From NCBI GenBank assembly GCA_049322255.1, contig JBMORE010000189.1, forward strand, positions 1 to 47,528: a DNA stretch of 47,528 nt. Reading direction: 5' to 3'. Below are positions 10,099 through 27,501 of the stretch, in pieces (the stretch's first letter is position 1; every line of letters starts with the position of its first letter). The DNA is from Myxococcota bacterium (GTDB taxonomy: Bacteria > Myxococcota > Myxococcia > Myxococcales > Myxococcaceae). The position numbers and the translations under genes were made by a program. The notes beneath the pieces were generated by a model that saw nothing but the letters and a program-made list of their open reading frames with translations, searched no databases and was not told the origin of the DNA.

Positions 10099-11304
10099 CT
10101 ACCTCGAACAGCCTCGTTTGCGCCTCGTGGGAGCGCTTCGCCGCGTCAACCAGGCGGCAGCGAGCCACAGCGGCAAAAGGCCCGGCGTCGCTCCGAACGA
10201 GCAGCCGCACCCAGGGGTCGCATCAGCAGATCCCGAGCCTCCACCGTCGATGGTCTGCCCACCACCGTCACCTCCTGCATCTGCACCGGATGGTCCAGCT
10301 CCGGCATCGACGTCACCTGAGCCACCGTCCGAATCGCTCGAGCCACCATCAGACTCACCGGGTCCACCGTCGAAACCTCCCAGACCTCCATCCGGCGGCG
10401 GCGTGCTCCCGGGGTAGTAGTTCGGGTCGAATGCGGGCGTCATCTGGAAGTCACGGAAGCGTACGACCAGGGGAGTTGCCAAAATCGAAGAGGTGTTCGT
10501 GGCCGAGGCGAAGCGCCACTGGTTCCGGTAGCCCTGCTGATCTTGCGGCCAGTCACCGACCGACAGGTCCTGCGCCGTCGGGTTGTTGTAGTCGTTGTTG
10601 TTGACCCACAACTTGACGAACGAAGTGCCCGCATTTCCGTGCTTCCAACACCACTGCACATAGACCCACTGTCCAACGGGCACGAGGGCGTAGGCCGCTG
10701 AGTCGCTCGAAGAGATGTTTCTTTCGATGGAGTAGCAGACGTGGGTGGCGTCCGTGCCTTGTCCATTGCATTTATCGTCGACGGTCCAGGCGTCATTGGG
10801 GTTGTACCCGCCTTCCGACCAGTGAAGGATCGGCCGTGCGTCGCCATCCAAGACGCCGGAGTGCCACAGCCAATGCTTCAGGGTGTGGTTGTCGGCTCCG
10901 CCCGGCCCGGCCTGGAGGCCGTTGACGAAATAGACGGTTTCGGCGGCACACATTTCGGCGGGAAACCCGGTTCCTTCGAATCCGCTCCCGCTTTCCGTCC
11001 AGCCTGTCGCGCCCAACTGGATTCCGCTACACCACGTCACCTCGTAGTAGCCGGCTCCGTCCGGCCCTCCGGTCGTCGATCGGCTCCAGTTCCACTCTTT
11101 TCCTGATTGGCTGCACGGCCCCGGGCCGCCCCCGCCGTTGCCTTCCAAGGCATCCTGCGAGCCAGCTGGCGGCCAAGTAAATGTCGGGGGAGCCGCATCG
11201 GTGAACGGCATGCTCATGGGCTCCATCGATAACGCCGGCGAGGCGAGGCTCAGCGCGACCACAAGCCAAGCTTGCCGGCTCATCACCACATGGATCGTTT
11301 TCAT
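10099..11304 (-). CDS. Secreted MYXO-CTERM protein; Trp-rich beta-sandwich (possibly concanavalin/polysaccharide-lyase-like) domain
   Basis: ATG 11304 overlaps the TGA of the upstream gene (ATGA); signal peptide; GQWVYVQWCWK...VKLWVN; DGG/DAG linker; GCGCS + hydrophobic segment + RR tail. The fold call is tentative. Confidence 0.75.
   Translation of the reverse strand: MKTIHVVMSRQAWLVVALSLASPALSMEPMSMPFTDAAPPTFTWPPAGSQDALEGNGGGGPGPCSQSGKEWNWSRSTTGGPDGAGYYEVTWCSGIQLGATGWTESGSGFEGTGFPAEMCAAETVYFVNGLQAGPGGADNHTLKHWLWHSGVLDGDARPILHWSEGGYNPNDAWTVDDKCNGQGTDATHVCYSIERNISSSDSAAYALVPVGQWVYVQWCWKHGNAGTSFVKLWVNNNDYNNPTAQDLSVGDWPQDQQGYRNQWRFASATNTSSILATPLVVRFRDFQMTPAFDPNYYPGSTPPPDGGLGGFDGGPGESDGGSSDSDGGSGDVDAGAGPSGADAGGDGGGQTIDGGGSGSADATPGCGCSFGATPGLLPLWLAAAWLTRRSAPTRRKRGCSR
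10139..10353. repeat. Copy A of the duplicated linker/MYXO-CTERM coding segment
   Basis: 10139-10224 matches 11341-11426 at 76/86 nt; 10307-10353 matches 11470-11516 at 46/47 nt (hand alignment). Confidence 0.9.
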
Positions 11305-13130
11305 GAAATGAACCTCTTGGAACACCTCGTGAGATTGCCTCGCCGCGTCAACCAGGCGGCGGCGAGCCACAGCGGCAACAGGCCCAGCGGTCCCCCAAAC
11401 GAGCAGCCGCACCCAGGTGTTGCATCGGACGGCCCCGAGCCTCCTGCGTCTACACCGGATGATCCAGCGTCGACGTCACCTGCGCCACCGTCCGAATCGC
11501 TCGAGCCACCATCAGAAGCACCTTGACCACCGTCGCTTCCACCTGTGCCCGCATCCGCAGCAGGAACGCCTCCATCCGGAGGCGGCGGGGGCGGCGGGGG
11601 CACCGACCCGTTCGCGAATTCCCACCCCTTCAAGCCCAGATACGTCGTCCGGAAGGTCCCCTGTAGATACCCCGCCGCGTCGGTGATGCCGTCGCCAGGA
11701 GCGCCCTCCACGTTTCCACTCACCACCACGCGGGTCGGCGCCGACGCCAACGGGCAAATGATTCGGCTGCCGGGGACACAGGAACCGGGCGGGTCGTTGG
11801 AGACGATGACGTTGTCGGTGAAGTTGAACGGTCCGCTCGTCGCCCCGACACCAGCCACCAGCACCCGACCGAGAAAGGTATTCCGATAAATGAACGTCGG
11901 CGTGGAGATGACCCCGTCTTGGTTGAAATACCCCGCGGTGGACGAGGCATTGTAGACGCGGTTGTAGAGAAGTTCTGCGTTCTGCATCGTGTGCTGGTTT
12001 CCACCGATGGCATGGTCCGGCACGTTGAATACAGTGTTGTGCCGGACGGTGGCGCGGTCGGTGTTGCCCTTGAGCGCGATTCCTTCGAGAGCGCCCGCCC
12101 CTTCCGAGTCACGCACGTTGGAGACGGTGCAATCCTCGATGAGGAGCTTGTCTTGCGAGTAGATCTTCATCGCTGCTCCCACGTCGAGATTGTCCAAGAC
12201 GCAGTCTTGAATGACGGTTTGCTGCCCCGCGGGGAGGCCGGCGGTGAACCGGAGGAACGAGGAGTTGGAGCCGTTCTCGCCGGGCCCGAGGGTGTTCATG
12301 TGGAGGCGGCGCAGCACTGCCCCCGTGCTCCCAGGGGAGATCTGAATTCCGTAGAACCCCATTCGGGTGAAGGTGAAGCCGTCGAGGTAAAGGTTGTCGA
12401 TGTTGACGTAGAACAAGAGGCTGTGGCCGGTGCTCTTGTCCGCCGGCACGCGCTGAAAGTCGAAGGTGACCGACTCCCCGGGGTACTCGAGCCAGACGAT
12501 GGGTTTGAAATCGCCTCGCCACGGCGAGCGGCCGGAGTAGATGGCGGTCGCGTCTTCGATGTACGAGTCGAGCAAGTACGTCCCGCCGCGGAAGTAGATG
12601 AGCTCGTTCAGATAGGCGCTCAGCCCACCCGTTCCCTGGGTGTTGCCCTGGTAAACGTCACGCAGGCTGCGCCAGGGGTTGTCGATGGTCCCCGTCCCGG
12701 TGCCGCCCAGGAAGGTCGAGACGCTTCCGTTCACCGCATCGACGAAACGAAAGCCGGTGGTGGTCACTGTCACCGTCCAGGAGACGGTCGCGGTGGCGCC
12801 CTCTTGGTCCTGCACCCGCAGCGTCACGCTGTGCGGAGAGCCCGTCGTCGTGGGGTTGGGCCACACCACCTCCCCGGTCGCGGGGTTGACGGTCATTCCG
12901 CTGGGCGCGGTGGTGAGCGAATAGGCGAACGGATAGGCGCCGCCGATGACACCCGCGCGAATGTTGTATTCGATGCCGGGGTACGCCTTGTACGCGCGGT
13001 TGGCGGTCGTGAGGTTGGGCCGGGGGTGAATGATTTCCAGCGGGAAGTTGGCCGCGCTGGCCGTCGCGGCGAACCCAAGTACAGCGACGACGAGGAACCG
13101 GAGATGGGGAAAGCGGCGCGCGTCACTCAT
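11301..13130 (-). CDS. Secreted Ig-like (He_PIG-type) + right-handed beta-helix protein with MYXO-CTERM
   Basis: Signal peptide ...ATASA; YSLTTAPSGMTVNPATGEVVW Ig motif; GTIDNPWRSL..IYFRGGTY; Asn-ladder repeats (RHNTVFN, YNRVYN, YRNTF, TDNVI); poly-Pro; GCGCS tail. Confidence 0.85.
   Translation of the reverse strand: MSDARRFPHLRFLVVAVLGFAATASAANFPLEIIHPRPNLTTANRAYKAYPGIEYNIRAGVIGGAYPFAYSLTTAPSGMTVNPATGEVVWPNPTTTGSPHSVTLRVQDQEGATATVSWTVTVTTTGFRFVDAVNGSVSTFLGGTGTGTIDNPWRSLRDVYQGNTQGTGGLSAYLNELIYFRGGTYLLDSYIEDATAIYSGRSPWRGDFKPIVWLEYPGESVTFDFQRVPADKSTGHSLLFYVNIDNLYLDGFTFTRMGFYGIQISPGSTGAVLRRLHMNTLGPGENGSNSSFLRFTAGLPAGQQTVIQDCVLDNLDVGAAMKIYSQDKLLIEDCTVSNVRDSEGAGALEGIALKGNTDRATVRHNTVFNVPDHAIGGNQHTMQNAELLYNRVYNASSTAGYFNQDGVISTPTFIYRNTFLGRVLVAGVGATSGPFNFTDNVIVSNDPPGSCVPGSRIICPLASAPTRVVVSGNVEGAPGDGITDAAGYLQGTFRTTYLGLKGWEFANGSVPPPPPPPPDGGVPAADAGTGGSDGGQGASDGGSSDSDGGAGDVDAGSSGVDAGGSGPSDATPGCGCSFGGPLGLLPLWLAAAWLTRRGNLTRCSKRFIS
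11341..11516. repeat. Copy B of the duplicated linker/MYXO-CTERM coding segment
   Basis: Matches 10139-10224 and 10307-10353. Confidence 0.9.
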
Positions 13131-23076: not shown

Positions 23077-23454
23077 ATGTCCCAGATTCTCGTCGTCGAC
23101 GACGACGCCAGCCACCGCACCCTGCTCTGCGACTTCCTGGAGGAGCTCGGCTACCAAACCTTTCAGGCAGCCAACGGCCGCGAGGCGCTCGACTTTCTCG
23201 AGGAGTCGCTGCCCCAAGCGGTGCTGCTCGACTTGCGAATGCCGGTGATGAGTGGCTGGGCTCTGCTCGACGCGCTCAAGAAGCTGCCCCGCGCCCGCGG
23301 GCTACCCATCGTGGTCATCTCGGCGTACGGGTACGAGTGGGAGGCGGAGCTGGTGGGCGCGGCGGGGTACATCTCCAAGCCGGTGGACTTGGAGAAAGTG
23401 CGCGCCACCGTGGAGCAGGTGGTGGGGCCGCCCCAGGTGCAGATGCTGCACTAA
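23077..23454 (+). CDS. Single-domain response regulator (receiver)
   Basis: ILVVDDD, VLLDLRMPVMSG, ISA, YISKP. Confidence 0.93.
   Translation: MSQILVVDDDASHRTLLCDFLEELGYQTFQAANGREALDFLEESLPQAVLLDLRMPVMSGWALLDALKKLPRARGLPIVVISAYGYEWEAELVGAAGYISKPVDLEKVRATVEQVVGPPQVQMLH
23398..23454 (+). repeat. Direct repeat copy 1 (57 bp; 3' end of the response regulator)
   Basis: Identical to 25756-25812; its last 46 bp also occur at 26666-26711. Confidence 0.97.
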
Positions 23455-23520
23455 CTCGAGAGCGGTTCTGACGGTGTCGTCGGCGAAGGGAGGGAGGTGT
23501 CACCGTTGGTCCGTCAGCAG

Positions 23521-24426
23521 TCACACATCCACGAAGTGCCAGTTGCGTGTGGTGACTACCAGGTCGATGAACGAACGGACCGCCGCCGAGGCAAGCCGCG
23601 TCGAGGGGTAGACGAGCTGAATGGGAAGCGGAGGCGGCTCGTATGAGGGAAGAAGAACTCGCAGCTTTCCCGCGCGCACCGCCTCTGCCACCTGGTACGC
23701 CAGCACCAAAGTGATGCCGCCGCCCAGCTCCGCATGTCCAATGGCCGCGTCGGCGCTGTTGGTGACGTAAGCGGGAACGACGGGGACGGCGAACTCCTTG
23801 CCTTCGCGCACGAATCTCCAGACGGCCGTCGGAGTGAGCGAGGTGAGTTGGATGAGCGCGTGGGACGCGAGCTCCGCCGGGGTGCGCGGCGTCTTCCGGC
23901 GGGCGAGATACCTGGGCGAGGCCACCAGCACGCGCCGCGTTTCGCCCACGCGCCGGGCCACCAGGCTCGAATCCTCGAGCACGCCGATGCGGACCGCGAG
24001 GTCGACCCCCTCCTCCACCATGTTGACGATGCTGTCGGTGAGGGTGAGCACCCCCACCACCTTCGGGTGGCGCGACAGGAAGGTGCACATCAGGGGTGCC
24101 ACCTCTCGCCGGCCGAAGACGCTCGACGCCGTGACGACGAAGCGCCCGGTGGGCTCAGTGCGTTCCGCCCGGGCCGTCGCTTCGGCTTCTTCCACGTCCG
24201 CGAGAATGCGCCGCACGCGCTCGAGGTAGCGCGCGCCTGCGTCCGTCAAAGACACCGAGCGCGTCGTGCGCTGAAGCAAACGGATGGAGAGGTGCTCCTC
24301 GAGCACAGCCACGAGCCTCGTCACGGCCGAGGGCGAAAGGCCCAACCGGCGCGCGGCGGCCGCGAAGCCGCGTGACTCGGCGACGGCGACGAAGGCTGCC
24401 ATGGCATCGAGCCGTTCCAGGGGCAC
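23521..24426 (-). CDS. LysR-family transcriptional regulator (CrgA/DmlR-like)
   Basis: FVAVAESRGFAAAARRLGLSPSAVTR..LE..L..RLLQRTTRSVSLTDAG; EEGVDLAVRIG. Confidence 0.95.
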   Translation of the reverse strand: MPLERLDAMAAFVAVAESRGFAAAARRLGLSPSAVTRLVAVLEEHLSIRLLQRTTRSVSLTDAGARYLERVRRILADVEEAEATARAERTEPTGRFVVTASSVFGRREVAPLMCTFLSRHPKVVGVLTLTDSIVNMVEEGVDLAVRIGVLEDSSLVARRVGETRRVLVASPRYLARRKTPRTPAELASHALIQLTSLTPTAVWRFVREGKEFAVPVVPAYVTNSADAAIGHAELGGGITLVLAYQVAEAVRAGKLRVLLPSYEPPPLPIQLVYPSTRLASAAVRSFIDLVVTTRNWHFVDV

Positions 24427-24438
24427 TATTTCACTTTC

Positions 24439-24474
24439 CGCAACAGTGTCATGTCAATCATGTCCGTTGTTGCG
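24439..24474. promoter_or_regulatory. Inverted repeat in the LysR/CMD divergent promoter (candidate LysR operator)
   Basis: CGCAACA-N22-TGTTGCG. Confidence 0.45.
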
Positions 24475-24500
24475 AAACGGCGCCGGCTGCATCTGTGGGG

Positions 24501-24521
24501 TGCGGCGGGTCTTCCGCCGCA
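24501..24521 (+). promoter_or_regulatory. Hairpin in the 5' leader of the CMD gene
   Basis: TGCGGCGG-GTCTT-CCGCCGCA, a perfect 8-bp stem just upstream of the AAGGA SD. Confidence 0.45.
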
Positions 24522-24539
24522 GAACGGAAAGGAAAAACC

Positions 24540-25091
24540 ATGTCGTCGAGAATACCCACCCCCGCCACCATCGATGCCTCCCCCGCCGCCTCTCGGCCCT
24601 TATTGGAGGAGGTGAAGAAGCACCTGGGCTCGGCTCCCAACCTGTTTCGTGTGATGGCCAACAGCCCCGCCGTGCTCGAAGGGTACCTGGGGCTCAGCGG
24701 CGCGCTGGCCAAGGGAGAGCTGGACGCGCGCACCCGCGAGCGCATCGCTCTCGCCGTGTCGGAGCTTCACCGCTGCGACTACTGCTTGTCGGCGCACACC
24801 TACCTGGCGAAGTCCCTCGCGAAGCTGGACGAGGCAGAAATCGCTGCCAATCGCGAGGGCGGCTCCGGCGACCCCAAGGCGGACGTGGCTGTGCGCTTCG
24901 CGGTGAGGCTCGCCCGCGAACGAGGAAACGTCACGGACGGTGACCTAAAGGCGTTGCGCGCCGCCGGCTACGGCGATGGGCAGGCTCTGGAAATCCTCAT
25001 GCACGTCGTGCTCACGACCTTGACCAACTACGTGAACCACGTGGCACAAACGGAGATCGACTTCCCTGTAGTGAAGCACCGGTCAGTCTAA
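24540..25091 (+). CDS. AhpD/carboxymuconolactone decarboxylase family peroxidase-related protein
   Basis: PNLFRVMANSP, RERIALAVS...CDYCLSAH (CxxC), LTNYVN. Confidence 0.9.
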   Translation: MSSRIPTPATIDASPAASRPLLEEVKKHLGSAPNLFRVMANSPAVLEGYLGLSGALAKGELDARTRERIALAVSELHRCDYCLSAHTYLAKSLAKLDEAEIAANREGGSGDPKADVAVRFAVRLARERGNVTDGDLKALRAAGYGDGQALEILMHVVLTTLTNYVNHVAQTEIDFPVVKHRSV

Positions 25092-25104
25092 GTATCATCG
25101 TGGA

Positions 25105-25674
25105 GTGAAAAAGGCTCTTGGTGTGCTCGTCGTCGATTCGTACCTCGAGAAAGTTCCAGAGCCCCACCGCACCACGCTGCGTGTCATGCGCGCACACCTG
25201 CGCAAGGTTCTGCCGCGCGCAGCAGAGGGCATGAAGTACGGGATGCCCTCGTTCCTCATCGACGGCGCGGGCGTCGCCGGCTATGCGGCGTTCAAGTCCC
25301 ACTGCTCATATTTCCCATTCAGCGGGTCGATTCTTGCGGCTGCCGGGACCCTTGCTGGAGCCACCCGCTCCAGCAAGGGCGCCCTGCAATTCCCCGCCGA
25401 CAAGCCGCTCTCGGTGGGGGTTGTGCGGAAGCTGGTCAAGGCGCGCCTCGCCGAGCTCTCCCGGCCCCAAGGCGGCAAGCGACGCGACTACTATGACGAC
25501 GGCACCTTGAAGGCCGAGGGCGGCTGGAGGAACGGGCAGCTCCACGGCAAGTGGAAGTGGTATCGCCAAGACGGAAGTCTGATGCGTACCGGCGAATTCA
25601 GGGCTGGTGCGCAGGTCGGCACTTGGGAGACCTGGTCCCGCGACGGTCGCCTCGTGAAGCGGACGAAGCTCTGA
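25105..25674 (+). CDS. DUF1801 (YdhG-like) domain fused to MORN-variant repeats
   Basis: VDSYL...E.MKYGMP...AAFKSHCSYFPFSG..KGALQFP; C-terminal YYDDGTLKAEG.W.NG..HGKWKWY..DG. Confidence 0.8.
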   Translation: MKKALGVLVVDSYLEKVPEPHRTTLRVMRAHLRKVLPRAAEGMKYGMPSFLIDGAGVAGYAAFKSHCSYFPFSGSILAAAGTLAGATRSSKGALQFPADKPLSVGVVRKLVKARLAELSRPQGGKRRDYYDDGTLKAEGGWRNGQLHGKWKWYRQDGSLMRTGEFRAGAQVGTWETWSRDGRLVKRTKL

Positions 25675-25755
25675 AGGCGAGGGGTGCTGAGCCGCAGTGG
25701 TGACAAGAATAACCAGCAAACCCTAGGAGAGGGGCAGCGGCGAGACGGGGATGAG

Positions 25756-25921
25756 GTGCGCGCCACCGTGGAGCAGGTGGTGGGGCCGCCCCAGGTGCAG
25801 ATGCTGCACTAAGATGCCGCCTTGAATGGCACCAGAGGCTGCGGTGCGCGCCACCGGGCTGGTGAAGCGGTTTGGCACGTTCACCGCCATCGACGGGCTG
25901 GATTTGGTCATCCCCAAGGGC
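25756..25921 (+). repeat. Direct repeat copy 2 (response regulator 3' end + intergenic + first 32 codons of the ABC ATPase)
   Basis: 25756-25812 = 23398-23454; 25767-25921 = 26666-26820 (155 bp exact). Confidence 0.97.
25826..25921 (+). pseudogene. Duplicated 5' fragment of the ABC transporter ATPase
   Basis: MAPEAAVRATGLVKRFGTFTAIDGLDLVIPKG, identical to 26725-26820 and truncated before Walker A. Confidence 0.9.
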
Positions 25922-26023
25922 GCGAGAAGCTGCACATCCGCAAGGCCCAGAGCTACGCGCAGAAGGCTGCGTAGGTGGCCGTCAGTTCTTCCCGCGGGTC
26001 ACCGTGGGTATGATTCGCTCACG

Positions 26024-26314
26024 ATGCGCCGAGCCGACACCCTCGCCACCCTCCGAAGCCGTGCCGACGACATCCGCCGCCTCGGTGTGAAGTCCCTCGC
26101 ACTCTTCGGGTCTGTCTCCAGGGACGAGGCCCGAGAAGGAAGCGACGTGGACCTTCTAGTGGACTTCGACGGACCGGCGACGTTCGACCGGTACATGGAC
26201 CTCAAGTTCTTCCTGGAGGACCTGCTCGGGTGCCGCGTCGACCTCATCACCCGAAAGGGACTGCGTCCGCGGCTTCGGCCGACCGTGGAACATGAGGCCA
26301 TCCATGTCGCGTGA
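26024..26314 (+). CDS. mntA: Minimal nucleotidyltransferase antitoxin (MntA, type VII TA)
   Basis: GS-X10-DXD ([16 protein letters not shown]), [17 protein letters not shown] 9 nt upstream of the ATG. Confidence 0.92.
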
Positions 26315-26639
26315 TTGGCAGCTCTACCTCGAGGATATCGAGGAGGCGTGCGCGAAAATTGCGAGGTTCATCGATGGCCACTCCTTCGAGAGCTTCATCG
26401 CCGACGAGAAGACGAAGGCAGCCGTGGAGTGGCATCTCCTCGTCATCGGCGAGGCGGCAAAACACGTCCCCGAGGAGATTCGGGTGAGGCACCCCGAGGT
26501 CGAGTGGCGAAAGATTGCTGGCCTCAGAGACATCCTCGCCCATGGTTACTTCGGCATCGACGACGAGACCATCTGGGACTCGGTCAACAACAAGGTGCCC
26601 CAACTGCGCAATCAGATGCAGCGCATACTAATGCGTTGA
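26304..26639 (+). CDS. hepT: HEPN/DUF86 ribonuclease toxin (HepT)
   Basis: [20 protein letters not shown] (RX4HXY); overlaps mntA by 11 nt. Confidence 0.92.
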
Positions 26640-26665
26640 CCCTGGCTCGACTCCAAGACGGACAT

Positions 26666-26820
26666 CGTGGAGCAGGTGGTGGGGCCGCCCCAGGTGCAGA
26701 TGCTGCACTAAGATGCCGCCTTGAATGGCACCAGAGGCTGCGGTGCGCGCCACCGGGCTGGTGAAGCGGTTTGGCACGTTCACCGCCATCGACGGGCTGG
26801 ATTTGGTCATCCCCAAGGGC
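26666..26820 (+). repeat. Direct repeat copy 3 (155 bp), continuing into the intact ABC ATPase
   Basis: Identical to 25767-25921. Confidence 0.97.
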
Positions 26821-27501
26821 TCGTTTTTCGCCTTCCTGGGGCCCAACGGCGCCGGCAAGTCGACCACCATCGCCGTCCTCACCGGCATCTACGGCCCTGA
26901 CGCGGGGAGCATCGACATCCTCGGGCTGGATGCGCGGGCGCGGCCTTTGGAAGTCAAATCGCGTATCGGGGTGGTGCCCGAAGAGCTCTCTTTGTTCGAG
27001 CGACTGACAGGAAGGCAGTACCTCACCTTCTGCGGGCGGATGTTCGGGCTTTCGGCGGAAGCGGCGGCGGGGCGCAGCGAGGAGCTGCTTTCTCTCACCG
27101 AGCTTTCCTACAAGGCGGGGGCGCTGGTGGCGGAGTACTCCAAGGGCATGCGGCGCCGGTTGGCCATCGCCGCCGCCCTCATCCACGCGCCCGAGCTGGT
27201 GTTCCTCGACGAGCCGTTCGAGGGCATCGATGTCTTGGCGGCGGGAGTCATTCGCGACCTTTTGCGCGAGCTGTCGGCCAGGGGGGTGACGCTCCTGCTC
27301 ACCACCCACGTGCTGGAGATTGCCGAGCGGCTGGCCAGCCATGCGGGCATCATCCAAGCGGGGAAGATGGTCGACCAAGGCTCCCTGGAGGAGCTTCGCC
27401 GCCGTCATCATGCCCGGTCGCTGGAGGAGGTCTTCGAAAAGCTGGTGGGGGCGCCGGCGGCGCGCAACGCGCAGCTGTCCTTCTATCGGGAGCGGGCGTG
27501 A
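26725..27501 (+). CDS. ABC transporter ATP-binding protein (exporter type)
   Basis: GPNGAGKST, YSKGMRRR, VFLDEP, TTH. Confidence 0.95.
   Translation: MAPEAAVRATGLVKRFGTFTAIDGLDLVIPKGSFFAFLGPNGAGKSTTIAVLTGIYGPDAGSIDILGLDARARPLEVKSRIGVVPEELSLFERLTGRQYLTFCGRMFGLSAEAAAGRSEELLSLTELSYKAGALVAEYSKGMRRRLAIAAALIHAPELVFLDEPFEGIDVLAAGVIRDLLRELSARGVTLLLTTHVLEIAERLASHAGIIQAGKMVDQGSLEELRRRHHARSLEEVFEKLVGAPAARNAQLSFYRERA

Follow-up and report, generated by a model that had tools for sequence, protein, structure and literature searches.

Toxin–antitoxin and metabolic gene cassettes between long target duplications in a Myxococcota genome

Results

Two cassettes between duplicated gene ends

We analysed a 47,528-nucleotide stretch of the genome of a Myxococcota bacterium (assembly GCA_049322255.1, contig JBMORE010000189.1, positions 1 to 47,528; hereafter the window) in which a response regulator (RR) gene and an ABC transporter ATPase gene are separated by two cargo cassettes, each enclosed by long exact duplications of the adjoining gene ends. 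From left to right, the blocks are the RR gene, cassette 1, an orphan RR tail, 13 nt, an orphan ABC head of 32 codons, cassette 2, a second orphan RR tail, 13 nt and the intact ABC ATPase gene. The features are as follows.

23077-23454, plus strand: RR, intact, single-domain, 125 aa (PF00072); its last 57 bp are repeat copy A1
23398-23454, plus strand: 57-bp repeat, copy 1, ending exactly at the RR stop codon (exact-repeat search)
23455-25755, no strand: cassette 1, 2301 bp, GC 0.659 (exact-repeat search; read depth 39)
23521-24426, minus strand: LysR-family regulator, divergent from ahpD (Pfam)
24540-25091, plus strand: CMD/AhpD-family protein, 183 aa (Pfam CMD)
25105-25674, plus strand: DUF1801 plus MORN_2 protein (Pfam)
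25756-25812, plus strand: 57-bp repeat, copy 2, the orphan RR tail (exact-repeat search)
25767-25921, plus strand: 155-bp repeat, copy 1, made of 46 bp of RR tail, the 13-nt spacer and ABC codons 1-32, the orphan head (exact-repeat search; read depth 73)
25922-26665, no strand: cassette 2, 744 bp, GC 0.62 (exact-repeat search; read depth 37.4)
26024-26314, plus strand: MntA-type nucleotidyltransferase antitoxin with GSX10DXD (Pfam NTP_transf_2)
26304-26639, plus strand: HepT-type HEPN RNase toxin with RX4HXY (Pfam HepT-like)
26666-26820, plus strand: 155-bp repeat, copy 2, made of the third 46-bp RR-tail copy (26666-26711) and then the intact ABC start (exact-repeat search)
26725-27501, plus strand: ABC transporter ATPase, intact, 258 aa (PF00005)

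A search for maximal exact repeats in the window returned, to the base, the repeats (57, 155 and 46 bp) and cassettes (2301 and 744 bp) that an initial annotation of this DNA had described. The 57-bp repeat is 23398-23454 = 25756-25812, the 155-bp repeat is 25767-25921 = 26666-26820, and the core of 46 bp common to both is 23409-23454 = 26666-26711; the longest exact repeat elsewhere in the window is 33 bp. Genome-wide, the 57- and 155-bp repeats occur in three and two copies, and they are staggered, with starts 11 bp and ends 109 bp apart. Deleting each cassette together with one repeat leaves the RR stop codon, 13 nt and the ATG of the ABC ATPase, which is the simple junction that the annotation had expected, and Pfam supports its gene labels (LysR, AhpD/CMD, DUF1801 and mntA-hepT). 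Its description of the process as gene-preserving holds for the reading frames, which are intact, but not for the gene arrangement: the ABC gene, formerly 13 nt behind the RR gene, now lies 3.2 kb from it, and this new distance may have changed its expression. Either order of the two insertions would fit the sequence. No Rfam element was found in the window, and no tandem repeat at the RR-ABC locus.

Read depth and assembly

Such an array could be mimicked by strain variants that had been collapsed, or by a free circle that the assembler had unrolled, and the initial annotation had named the former as grounds for abandoning its interpretation. We checked depth in the Logan unitigs of the probable source run, which is not an independent sample. 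The left flank has a depth of 37.8, cassette 1 of 39, cassette 2 of 37.4 and the right flank of 36.3; both cassettes are at flank depth and therefore at chromosome depth. The 155-bp repeat stands at 73 (about 2x) and the 46-bp core at 100 (about 2.7x), and no sequence variants are listed for the stretch in these unitigs. Because the cassettes are at flank level rather than at about half of it, two collapsed strains with one cassette each are excluded.

Some features of the assembly do leave room for an artefact. Contig-end overlaps of 127 bp in the 196-contig assembly suggest that it was built with k=127, long enough to bridge the 57-bp repeat but too short for the 155-bp one, and, as no listed contig of the run spans the whole stretch, the block order rests on the original assembly. 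The depth values speak against an artefact, as does the decay seen in older events of the same genome (below), which assembly cannot produce, and we consider this explanation very improbable. The stretch is present in the contigs of one run only, and contigs would miss rare forms such as an excised circle; two further runs (X2, X3) contain next to none of it, and among the matches listed there is no RNA run that contains it. At 17 places in the genome, exact 127-bp repeats enclose a 100-nt spacer, which we took to be scaffold gaps. Together with the 127-bp contig overlaps, these are assembler signatures that mimic target duplications.

Similar insertions elsewhere in the genome

The annotation had suggested a genome-wide scan for similar repeats. 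Comparing the full set of 196 contigs with itself yielded 337 repeat pairs within single contigs, from which we removed high-copy repeats and same-gene pairs and, by hand, paralogues. Left out were paralogous gene pairs, intragenic repeats, a palindromic family of about 250 copies, the 17 repeats of 127 bp, a tRNA islet on contig C127, complex cases on C26, C53, C153 and C22, a second RCC1 stub and cross-contig OPT copies. What remains is a curated set of 27 same-contig insertions, with repeats of 30-785 bp, cargo of 475-8155 bp and copy identities of 87-100%. Their targets are about 25 different protein genes, entered at 5' and 3' ends alike; the 3' ends include those of rnhA, dnaE, an aldo-keto reductase and hpt, and the 5' ends those of lipA, radC, a diguanylate cyclase and an M64 peptidase. 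In most surviving events the repeat reaches a start or stop codon, and it ends at the stop codon exactly in the RR gene and with synonymous last codons in rnhA and NMT1.

Old stubs show nonsense changes and indels, and copy identity is graded from 100% to 87% with this decay; the process is therefore ongoing, and the RR-ABC insertions are recent and part of it. The scan also confirmed that sites are used repeatedly. Four loci (RR-ABC, M64, RCC1 and OPT) were reused, and the 27 events include two pairs at one site where 0.08-0.23 would be expected at random, with the RCC1 and OPT arrays in addition. Toxin–antitoxin (TA) or TA-like genes are carried by 18 of the 27 cargos (VapBC, ParE pairs, MazF, MNT-HEPN, AbiEii and zeta), non-TA genes by seven, and two are unclear. 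Three of the TA labels draw in part on gene pairings that we presume.

Several loci in the genome have features of their own. On contig C15 (L041:3639-5400), an in-frame fusion joins the rnhA stub to the 5' part of a 3-dmu-9_3-mt gene, and a 3' part of this family follows about 1.2 kb further, past a MazF pair. The cargos of L044, L045 and L049 contain scraps of 36-84 bp that are 82-94% identical to unrelated genes elsewhere in this genome (C68, C136 and C47) and are perhaps anchors from earlier locations. On C53 (L063:1-7900), two copies of a PIN toxin-antitoxin pair, 87.5% identical, enclose an operon for an error-prone DnaE-type polymerase, which we take to be imuABC-like; the whole resembles a composite element with TA modules at its borders. 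A palindromic repeat of about 35-45 bp, the family of about 250 copies excluded above, occurs on many contigs (e.g., C13, C183 and C187), often within predicted frames, and is not at the junctions of the examined cassettes.

Search for mobility functions

We looked for terminal inverted repeats (TIRs) at the 27 cargos and found none (mean score 6.3 versus a null of 6.4); cassettes 1 and 2 score 5 and 6, where the null mean is 6.4. The 27 cargos also have no shared junction motif (best 17, with 14-18 in random sets) and no base bias at their cut points. In profile searches there was no recombinase or transposase match on the contig of the window. Genome-wide, these searches gave three tyrosine recombinases over cut-off, one resolvase, one rve fragment at a contig end and two reverse transcriptase fragments, and no IS1634, DDE_5 or DDE_Tnp_1 match over cut-off in the 196-contig assembly, where insertion sequence (IS) copies may be unassembled. 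The earlier observations of no TIRs and no linked recombinase are thus upheld, as is that of unequal, staggered duplications without a common att core, given the offsets of 11 and 109 bp and the lack of a motif shared among events.

These results bear on two explanations that rely on a dedicated enzyme. The first is that the cassettes are relics of tyrosine or serine integrase elements, which restore the gene that they enter, and that the integrase was later lost while addictive TA genes were kept. A candidate for such a relic does exist on C127 (L053:1359-2977), where an islet with a 43-bp exact repeat at tRNA genes holds BrnT, a CopG antitoxin and what is probably left of an integrase, an open reading frame (ORF) that we take to resemble an integrase N-terminus; it has the look of a classical relic island. 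However, integrase relics would not account for about 25 different protein-gene targets at both 5' and 3' ends, for unequal and staggered repeats at one site without a common crossover core, or for repeats that are still 100% identical and yet have no trace of an integrase, in a genome with just three tyrosine recombinases over cut-off and one resolvase, none of them on this contig. This reading is disfavoured, and we regard it as improbable.

Equally improbable, in our view, is mobilisation in trans, either by a transposase that makes long variable duplications, as those of the IS1634/IS1549 type do, or by a rolling-circle enzyme of the IS91/ISCR type that makes circles with host DNA. Metagenome-assembled genomes (MAGs) often lose IS copies, and this genome has a tyrosine recombinase/integrase and IS91-like ORF pair (C116:4884-6299) and an IS91-like fragment beside the OPT array (C163:61614-62090), the IS91 label being presumed from motifs. 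The 27 cargos, in contrast, have no TIRs, no shared end motif and no base bias at cut points, and the three transposase profiles found no match over cut-off.

The RR-ABC boundary in relatives

From 60 relatives, which include no same-genus genome, we fetched 20 loci picked for their RR or ABC matches, 17 of which contain both genes and come from family or order relatives. The two genes are 59-108 nt apart in 9 of the 17 and are separated by 0.4-12.8 kb of other DNA, e.g., purU and bfr, in the other 8. A duplicated RR tail or ABC head of at least 18 bp was found in 0 of the 17 loci. Judged from these sequences, RR-ABC adjacency appears to be ancestral and the boundary variable, and the duplications appear to belong to this lineage. 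The annotation had proposed looking for the empty site and for other cargo in relatives; adjacency and other DNA at the boundary were both found, whereas the exact 13-nt junction was not seen.

Degenerate RR-tail matches in two of the loci (L021 and L027) beat shuffled sequences, but they lie inside intact cargo ORFs and were treated as chance. In one relative (G014, L038:1481-1779), short tandem-like repeats of about 83 bp lie directly behind the RR orthologue.

Cargo of the two cassettes

The lysR-ahpD pair of cassette 1 is also present in a relative genome (G030), at 67% DNA identity. The full-length relatives found for the DUF1801 protein are from Actinomycetota MAGs (46-63% identity), and lysR or ahpD was beside DUF1801 in 0 of 19 DUF1801 loci. 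Cassette 1 has no nuclease gene.

For cassette 2, the available text of PMC7641770 defines class I HepT/MntA type VII TA systems by PF01909 and PF01934 genes that lie next to each other and carry GSX10DXD and RX4HXY motifs, and describes HepT as an RNase family. The cassette 2 pair has the same adjacent genes and both motifs and so comes under this sequence definition; MntA and HepT score 44 and 38 bits, below the NCBIfam equivalog cut-offs of 60 bits. A further mark of the class is RNase toxicity that is neutralised by AMP transfer, an activity that this pair may have. The mntA gene is in frame with the orphan ABC head, forming a 162-aa ORF (25826-26314). An orphan 5' gene head in frame with mntA was also observed in metagenomic loci L202 (2586-3017) and L209 (1226-1717, without a native start), and the radC stub shows no such fusion. 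The fused frame could place the antitoxin under the start signals of the host gene, or could reflect microhomology in codon phase.

Cassette 2 opens with a reading frame of about 16 codons, perhaps the 3' end of a donor gene that was cut. A donor for this left fragment was not found among the retrieved loci, nor as a gene end in the genome itself, where 19 nt match the interior of an unrelated gene on contig C22. A TATGAT hexamer at 26009-26014, 9 nt before the mntA start and with no clear ribosome-binding site, is a possible near-leaderless promoter; it was not flagged by other analysis.

TA genes between repeats

The genome is TA-rich, with 52 PIN, 12 HepT and 9 ParE matches, and any HepT match is found in only 12 of 120 family genomes. 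Away from contig ends, TA toxin loci lie between low-copy repeats in 3 of 10 HepT, 3 of 8 ParE and 4 of 51 PIN cases; overall, 10 of 69 TA toxin loci are repeat-flanked, compared to 1 of 187 typical small genes (Fisher p=1e-5).

The same scar occurs in metagenomes. Of 80 metagenomic HepT relatives, 47 could be tested; these form 42 groups, 10 of which are flanked by direct repeats, compared to 0 of 42 in a swapped-flank control. In 5 of the 42 (L184, L193, L202, L209 and L222), or about 1 in 8 of the distinct relatives tested, the repeat duplicates the start or end of a host gene; from peptide motifs, we take the targets at three of these loci to be mnmG, rnhA and leuB. The other five repeat-flanked groups were rejected as an IS-like end, a contig-terminal repeat, two mntA-internal duplications and a repeat of the repetitive extragenic palindromic (REP) type.

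Discussion

Comparison with known systems

Insertion with long target duplication (ILTD) was reportedly found around restriction-modification (RM) genes by Nobusato et al. in 2000. The available text of Furuta, Abe and Kobayashi (2010; PMC2853133) defines RM-ILTD by an insert of less than 20 kb that holds R and M genes, variable direct repeats of more than 30 bp that are unique in the genome, no mobile-element gene, and an empty site in a closely related genome; the repeats often span start or stop codons, and junction gene fusions are occasional. The RR-ABC inserts are 2301 and 744 bp long, their low-copy duplications are 57 and 155 bp, and no mobile-element gene lies in or beside them, with no match on the contig. 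As to the empty site, the short RR-ABC distances in 9 of 17 relatives speak for adjacency of the two genes, though not for the exact 13-nt junction. R and M genes are absent, the cargo being LysR-AhpD-DUF1801 and MntA-HepT. Judged by this layout, the RR-ABC insertions appear to work like ILTD, as a TA-rich variant, and are not members of RM-ILTD. The initial annotation had proposed an undescribed system, which does not stand, because the layout is that of Furuta et al., including repeats that span start and stop codons, and an experimental route to it is set out in the available text of PMC3240628. The layout itself is known, and what differs here is the cargo class and the scale.

The two share small inserts, variable low-copy repeats that often span start or stop codons, occasional gene fusions at the junction, and the lack of a mobile-element gene. 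Unlike RM-ILTD, the cargo here consists of TA pairs and metabolic genes, about 27 events with serial arrays occur in one genome, and most toxins are from RNase-type families. PIN and MazF are RNase families. As the cargo is RNase-type and cassette 1 is free of nucleases, the cutting or joining must come from the host or elsewhere, which argues against the cargo's own DNA cutting as the driver of ILTD. In the text available, Furuta et al. suggest a feature that the RM types have in common, such as double-strand breakage, and support only the amplification step with direct evidence; PMC3457768 extends the term ILTD to ‘other DNAs’. In the literature, searched mostly by titles and the starts of abstracts and with subscription journals largely outside its scope, no ILTD around TA pairs or in myxobacteria was described; in two TA reviews, Nobusato et al. 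appear solely as an entry in the reference list.

Three other systems are comparable, as far as the available text of each source goes. In E. coli, DNA with homology at one side likewise places cargo between variable target duplications (109-950 bp) without a recombinase, and these were 10 times more frequent in that assay than true homology-facilitated illegitimate recombination (HFIR); that work used laboratory conjugation, engineered cuts and selection, whereas the repeats here go down to 30-60 bp (PMC3240628). Effector displacement arrays of type VI secretion systems and Rhs proteins likewise show serial, additive, integrase-free capture behind a conserved anchor, with orphan remnants, and are proposed to arise by HFIR; in those arrays a secretion-system gene serves as the anchor and new effectors displace old ones, in contrast to the roughly 25 unrelated targets here, some of them housekeeping genes, of which an end is duplicated (PMC5361080). 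Unconventional circularizable structures (UCS) excise through long direct repeats around their cargo and are defined by detected circles and resistance cargo, whereas the repeats here are pieces of target genes (PMC7843796). For the RR-ABC cassettes, excision through the repeats is plausible. A further property of UCS is that they have no dedicated recombinase.

A model for capture

We propose, as a reading slightly better than an even bet, that the RR-ABC array arose by two successive recombinase-free insertions of the ILTD type, part of a genome-wide habit, each through a circle that carried an anchor and a single crossover. A linear fragment would enter with its cargo joined to a piece of a host gene end, either from kin with other cargo at a variable boundary or by end-joining of foreign and host DNA. 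Host nucleases might then trim the fragment, and its ends could be joined at short homology into a circle whose anchor is of random length. A single crossover in the anchor would integrate the circle and leave two anchor copies. Where the repeat reaches the start or stop codon, as in most surviving events here, one full gene is left and the orphan copy decays. Cargo between the direct repeats could loop out, and addictive TA cargo would be kept preferentially. The repeats would be unequal and staggered because each capture has its own trimming point.

The crossover step has a precedent. When linear DNA with one homologous end was conjugated into E. coli, target duplications arose in 56 of 60 clones; the 14 that were sequenced measured 109-950 bp, and the duplications were attributed to partial degradation, re-circularisation and a single crossover, according to the text available (PMC3240628). 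In the present genome, the reused loci, the synonymously diverged stubs and the repeats that end at a stop codon favour cargo that arrived on a homologous anchor. Synonymous and non-synonymous stub differences number 34:12 in M64 and 13:5 and 70:34 in RCC1, and 5:0, 5:1 and 7:2 in metagenomic loci L193, L202 and L222, which suggests the allele of a relative. At the junction that truncates the stub, eight events show extra similarity to the replaced host sequence (37 of 96 nt versus 26-27 expected, P 0.01-0.02), and the other junction shows none (17 of 60 nt); this split was chosen after an earlier pooled test, which without four ambiguous sides gives P=0.06. A linear one-anchor (HFIR) model predicted that mismatches would cluster at the cargo side of the intact copy. 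This was so in 10 of 19 events (p=0.37-0.5; 25 were aligned, of which 5 without a clear intact terminus had been left out beforehand and 1 had no mismatch), and we rejected that model as a general rule. Unlike the linear model, a circular intermediate predicts no polarity, in agreement with this result.

A strong rival is direct capture during break repair or template switching, in which foreign DNA enters a staggered break or a fork, both junctions are new and the repeat is copied from the recipient; we consider it less likely than the circle, and both mechanisms may operate. Exact identity extends over 57, 155, 267 and 785 bp in the freshest repeats, most mismatch sets fit neutral decay, the DUF1801 cargo is cross-phylum, Ku and LigD are present, and the cassette 2 junctions are both in coding DNA, all as direct capture would have it. 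By itself, however, it predicts neither the repeated use of one gene nor synonymously diverged stubs, repeats that end at a stop codon (RR, rnhA and NMT1) or similarity at just one of two junctions. Selection for safe harbours and later recombination could supply some of these features.

Several observations weigh against capture on an anchor-carrying circle as a genome-wide, TA-linked habit. Both cassette 2 junctions are inside coding DNA, so that either the donor was already duplicated or both junctions arose de novo; either way, coding DNA must have gained a junction de novo at least once. Excluding M64 and the hand-extended rnhA end, mismatches divide into 36 synonymous and 41 non-synonymous ones, in keeping with plain copying from the recipient and later decay, and the synonymous bias elsewhere could come from later allele replacement of the stub. 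The nearest relatives of the DUF1801 gene of cassette 1 are in another phylum, and no same-species donor or empty allele was found, so that either junction may be the new one. As for TA cargo, 59 of the 69 TA loci have no flanking repeat, and the TA share does not differ significantly by age (4 of 8 young versus 14 of 17 old events, p=0.12). Codon-atypical genes are flanked in 9 of 148 cases, 4 of the 9 being TA toxins, so that TA specificity is weaker than p=1e-5 implies. The scar is also rare in relatives, in 1 of 26 HepT loci and 0 of 28 ParE loci (1.5-kb flanks) and in 1 of 44 loci of the TA-rich genome G020 (3-kb flanks; 42 of its 70 PIN matches plus two HepT loci that are also in the count of 26). 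Ku, LigD and ComEC are present in our genome, and LigD is found in 26 and ComEC in all 37 of 37 genomes searched; given this spread and the rarity of the scar, these three proteins do not explain the rate in this genome.

How chromosomal TA pairs and small islets without a mobility gene arrive is an open question, and ILTD is a known mode of insertion whose mechanism is undemonstrated and still to be settled. The roughly 27 events in this genome, which span a range of ages, include several whose junctions are still pristine and mostly have RNase-type cargo, offer a way to separate breaks made by the cargo from host capture with retention by addiction. More tentatively, integration of anchor-carrying circles without a recombinase might be a common, cross-phylum route by which TA pairs colonise chromosomes, with the repeats making cassettes excisable and transferable and addiction locking them in. 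If so, ILTD would be host-driven capture filtered by addiction, common to RM and TA cargo, and not the result of cutting by the cargo.

Additional observations

In one of the genomes searched (G074, contig C69), locus L079 contains two 110-bp copies (1987-2096 and 2591-2703), one rich in AAC codons and the other differing from it mostly at those adenines; we take them to resemble the template and variable repeats of a diversity-generating retroelement. In the window itself, two adjoining minus-strand ORFs at 10123-11557 share blocks of 73-120 bp with 84-89% identity and are either paralogues or an older partial duplication.

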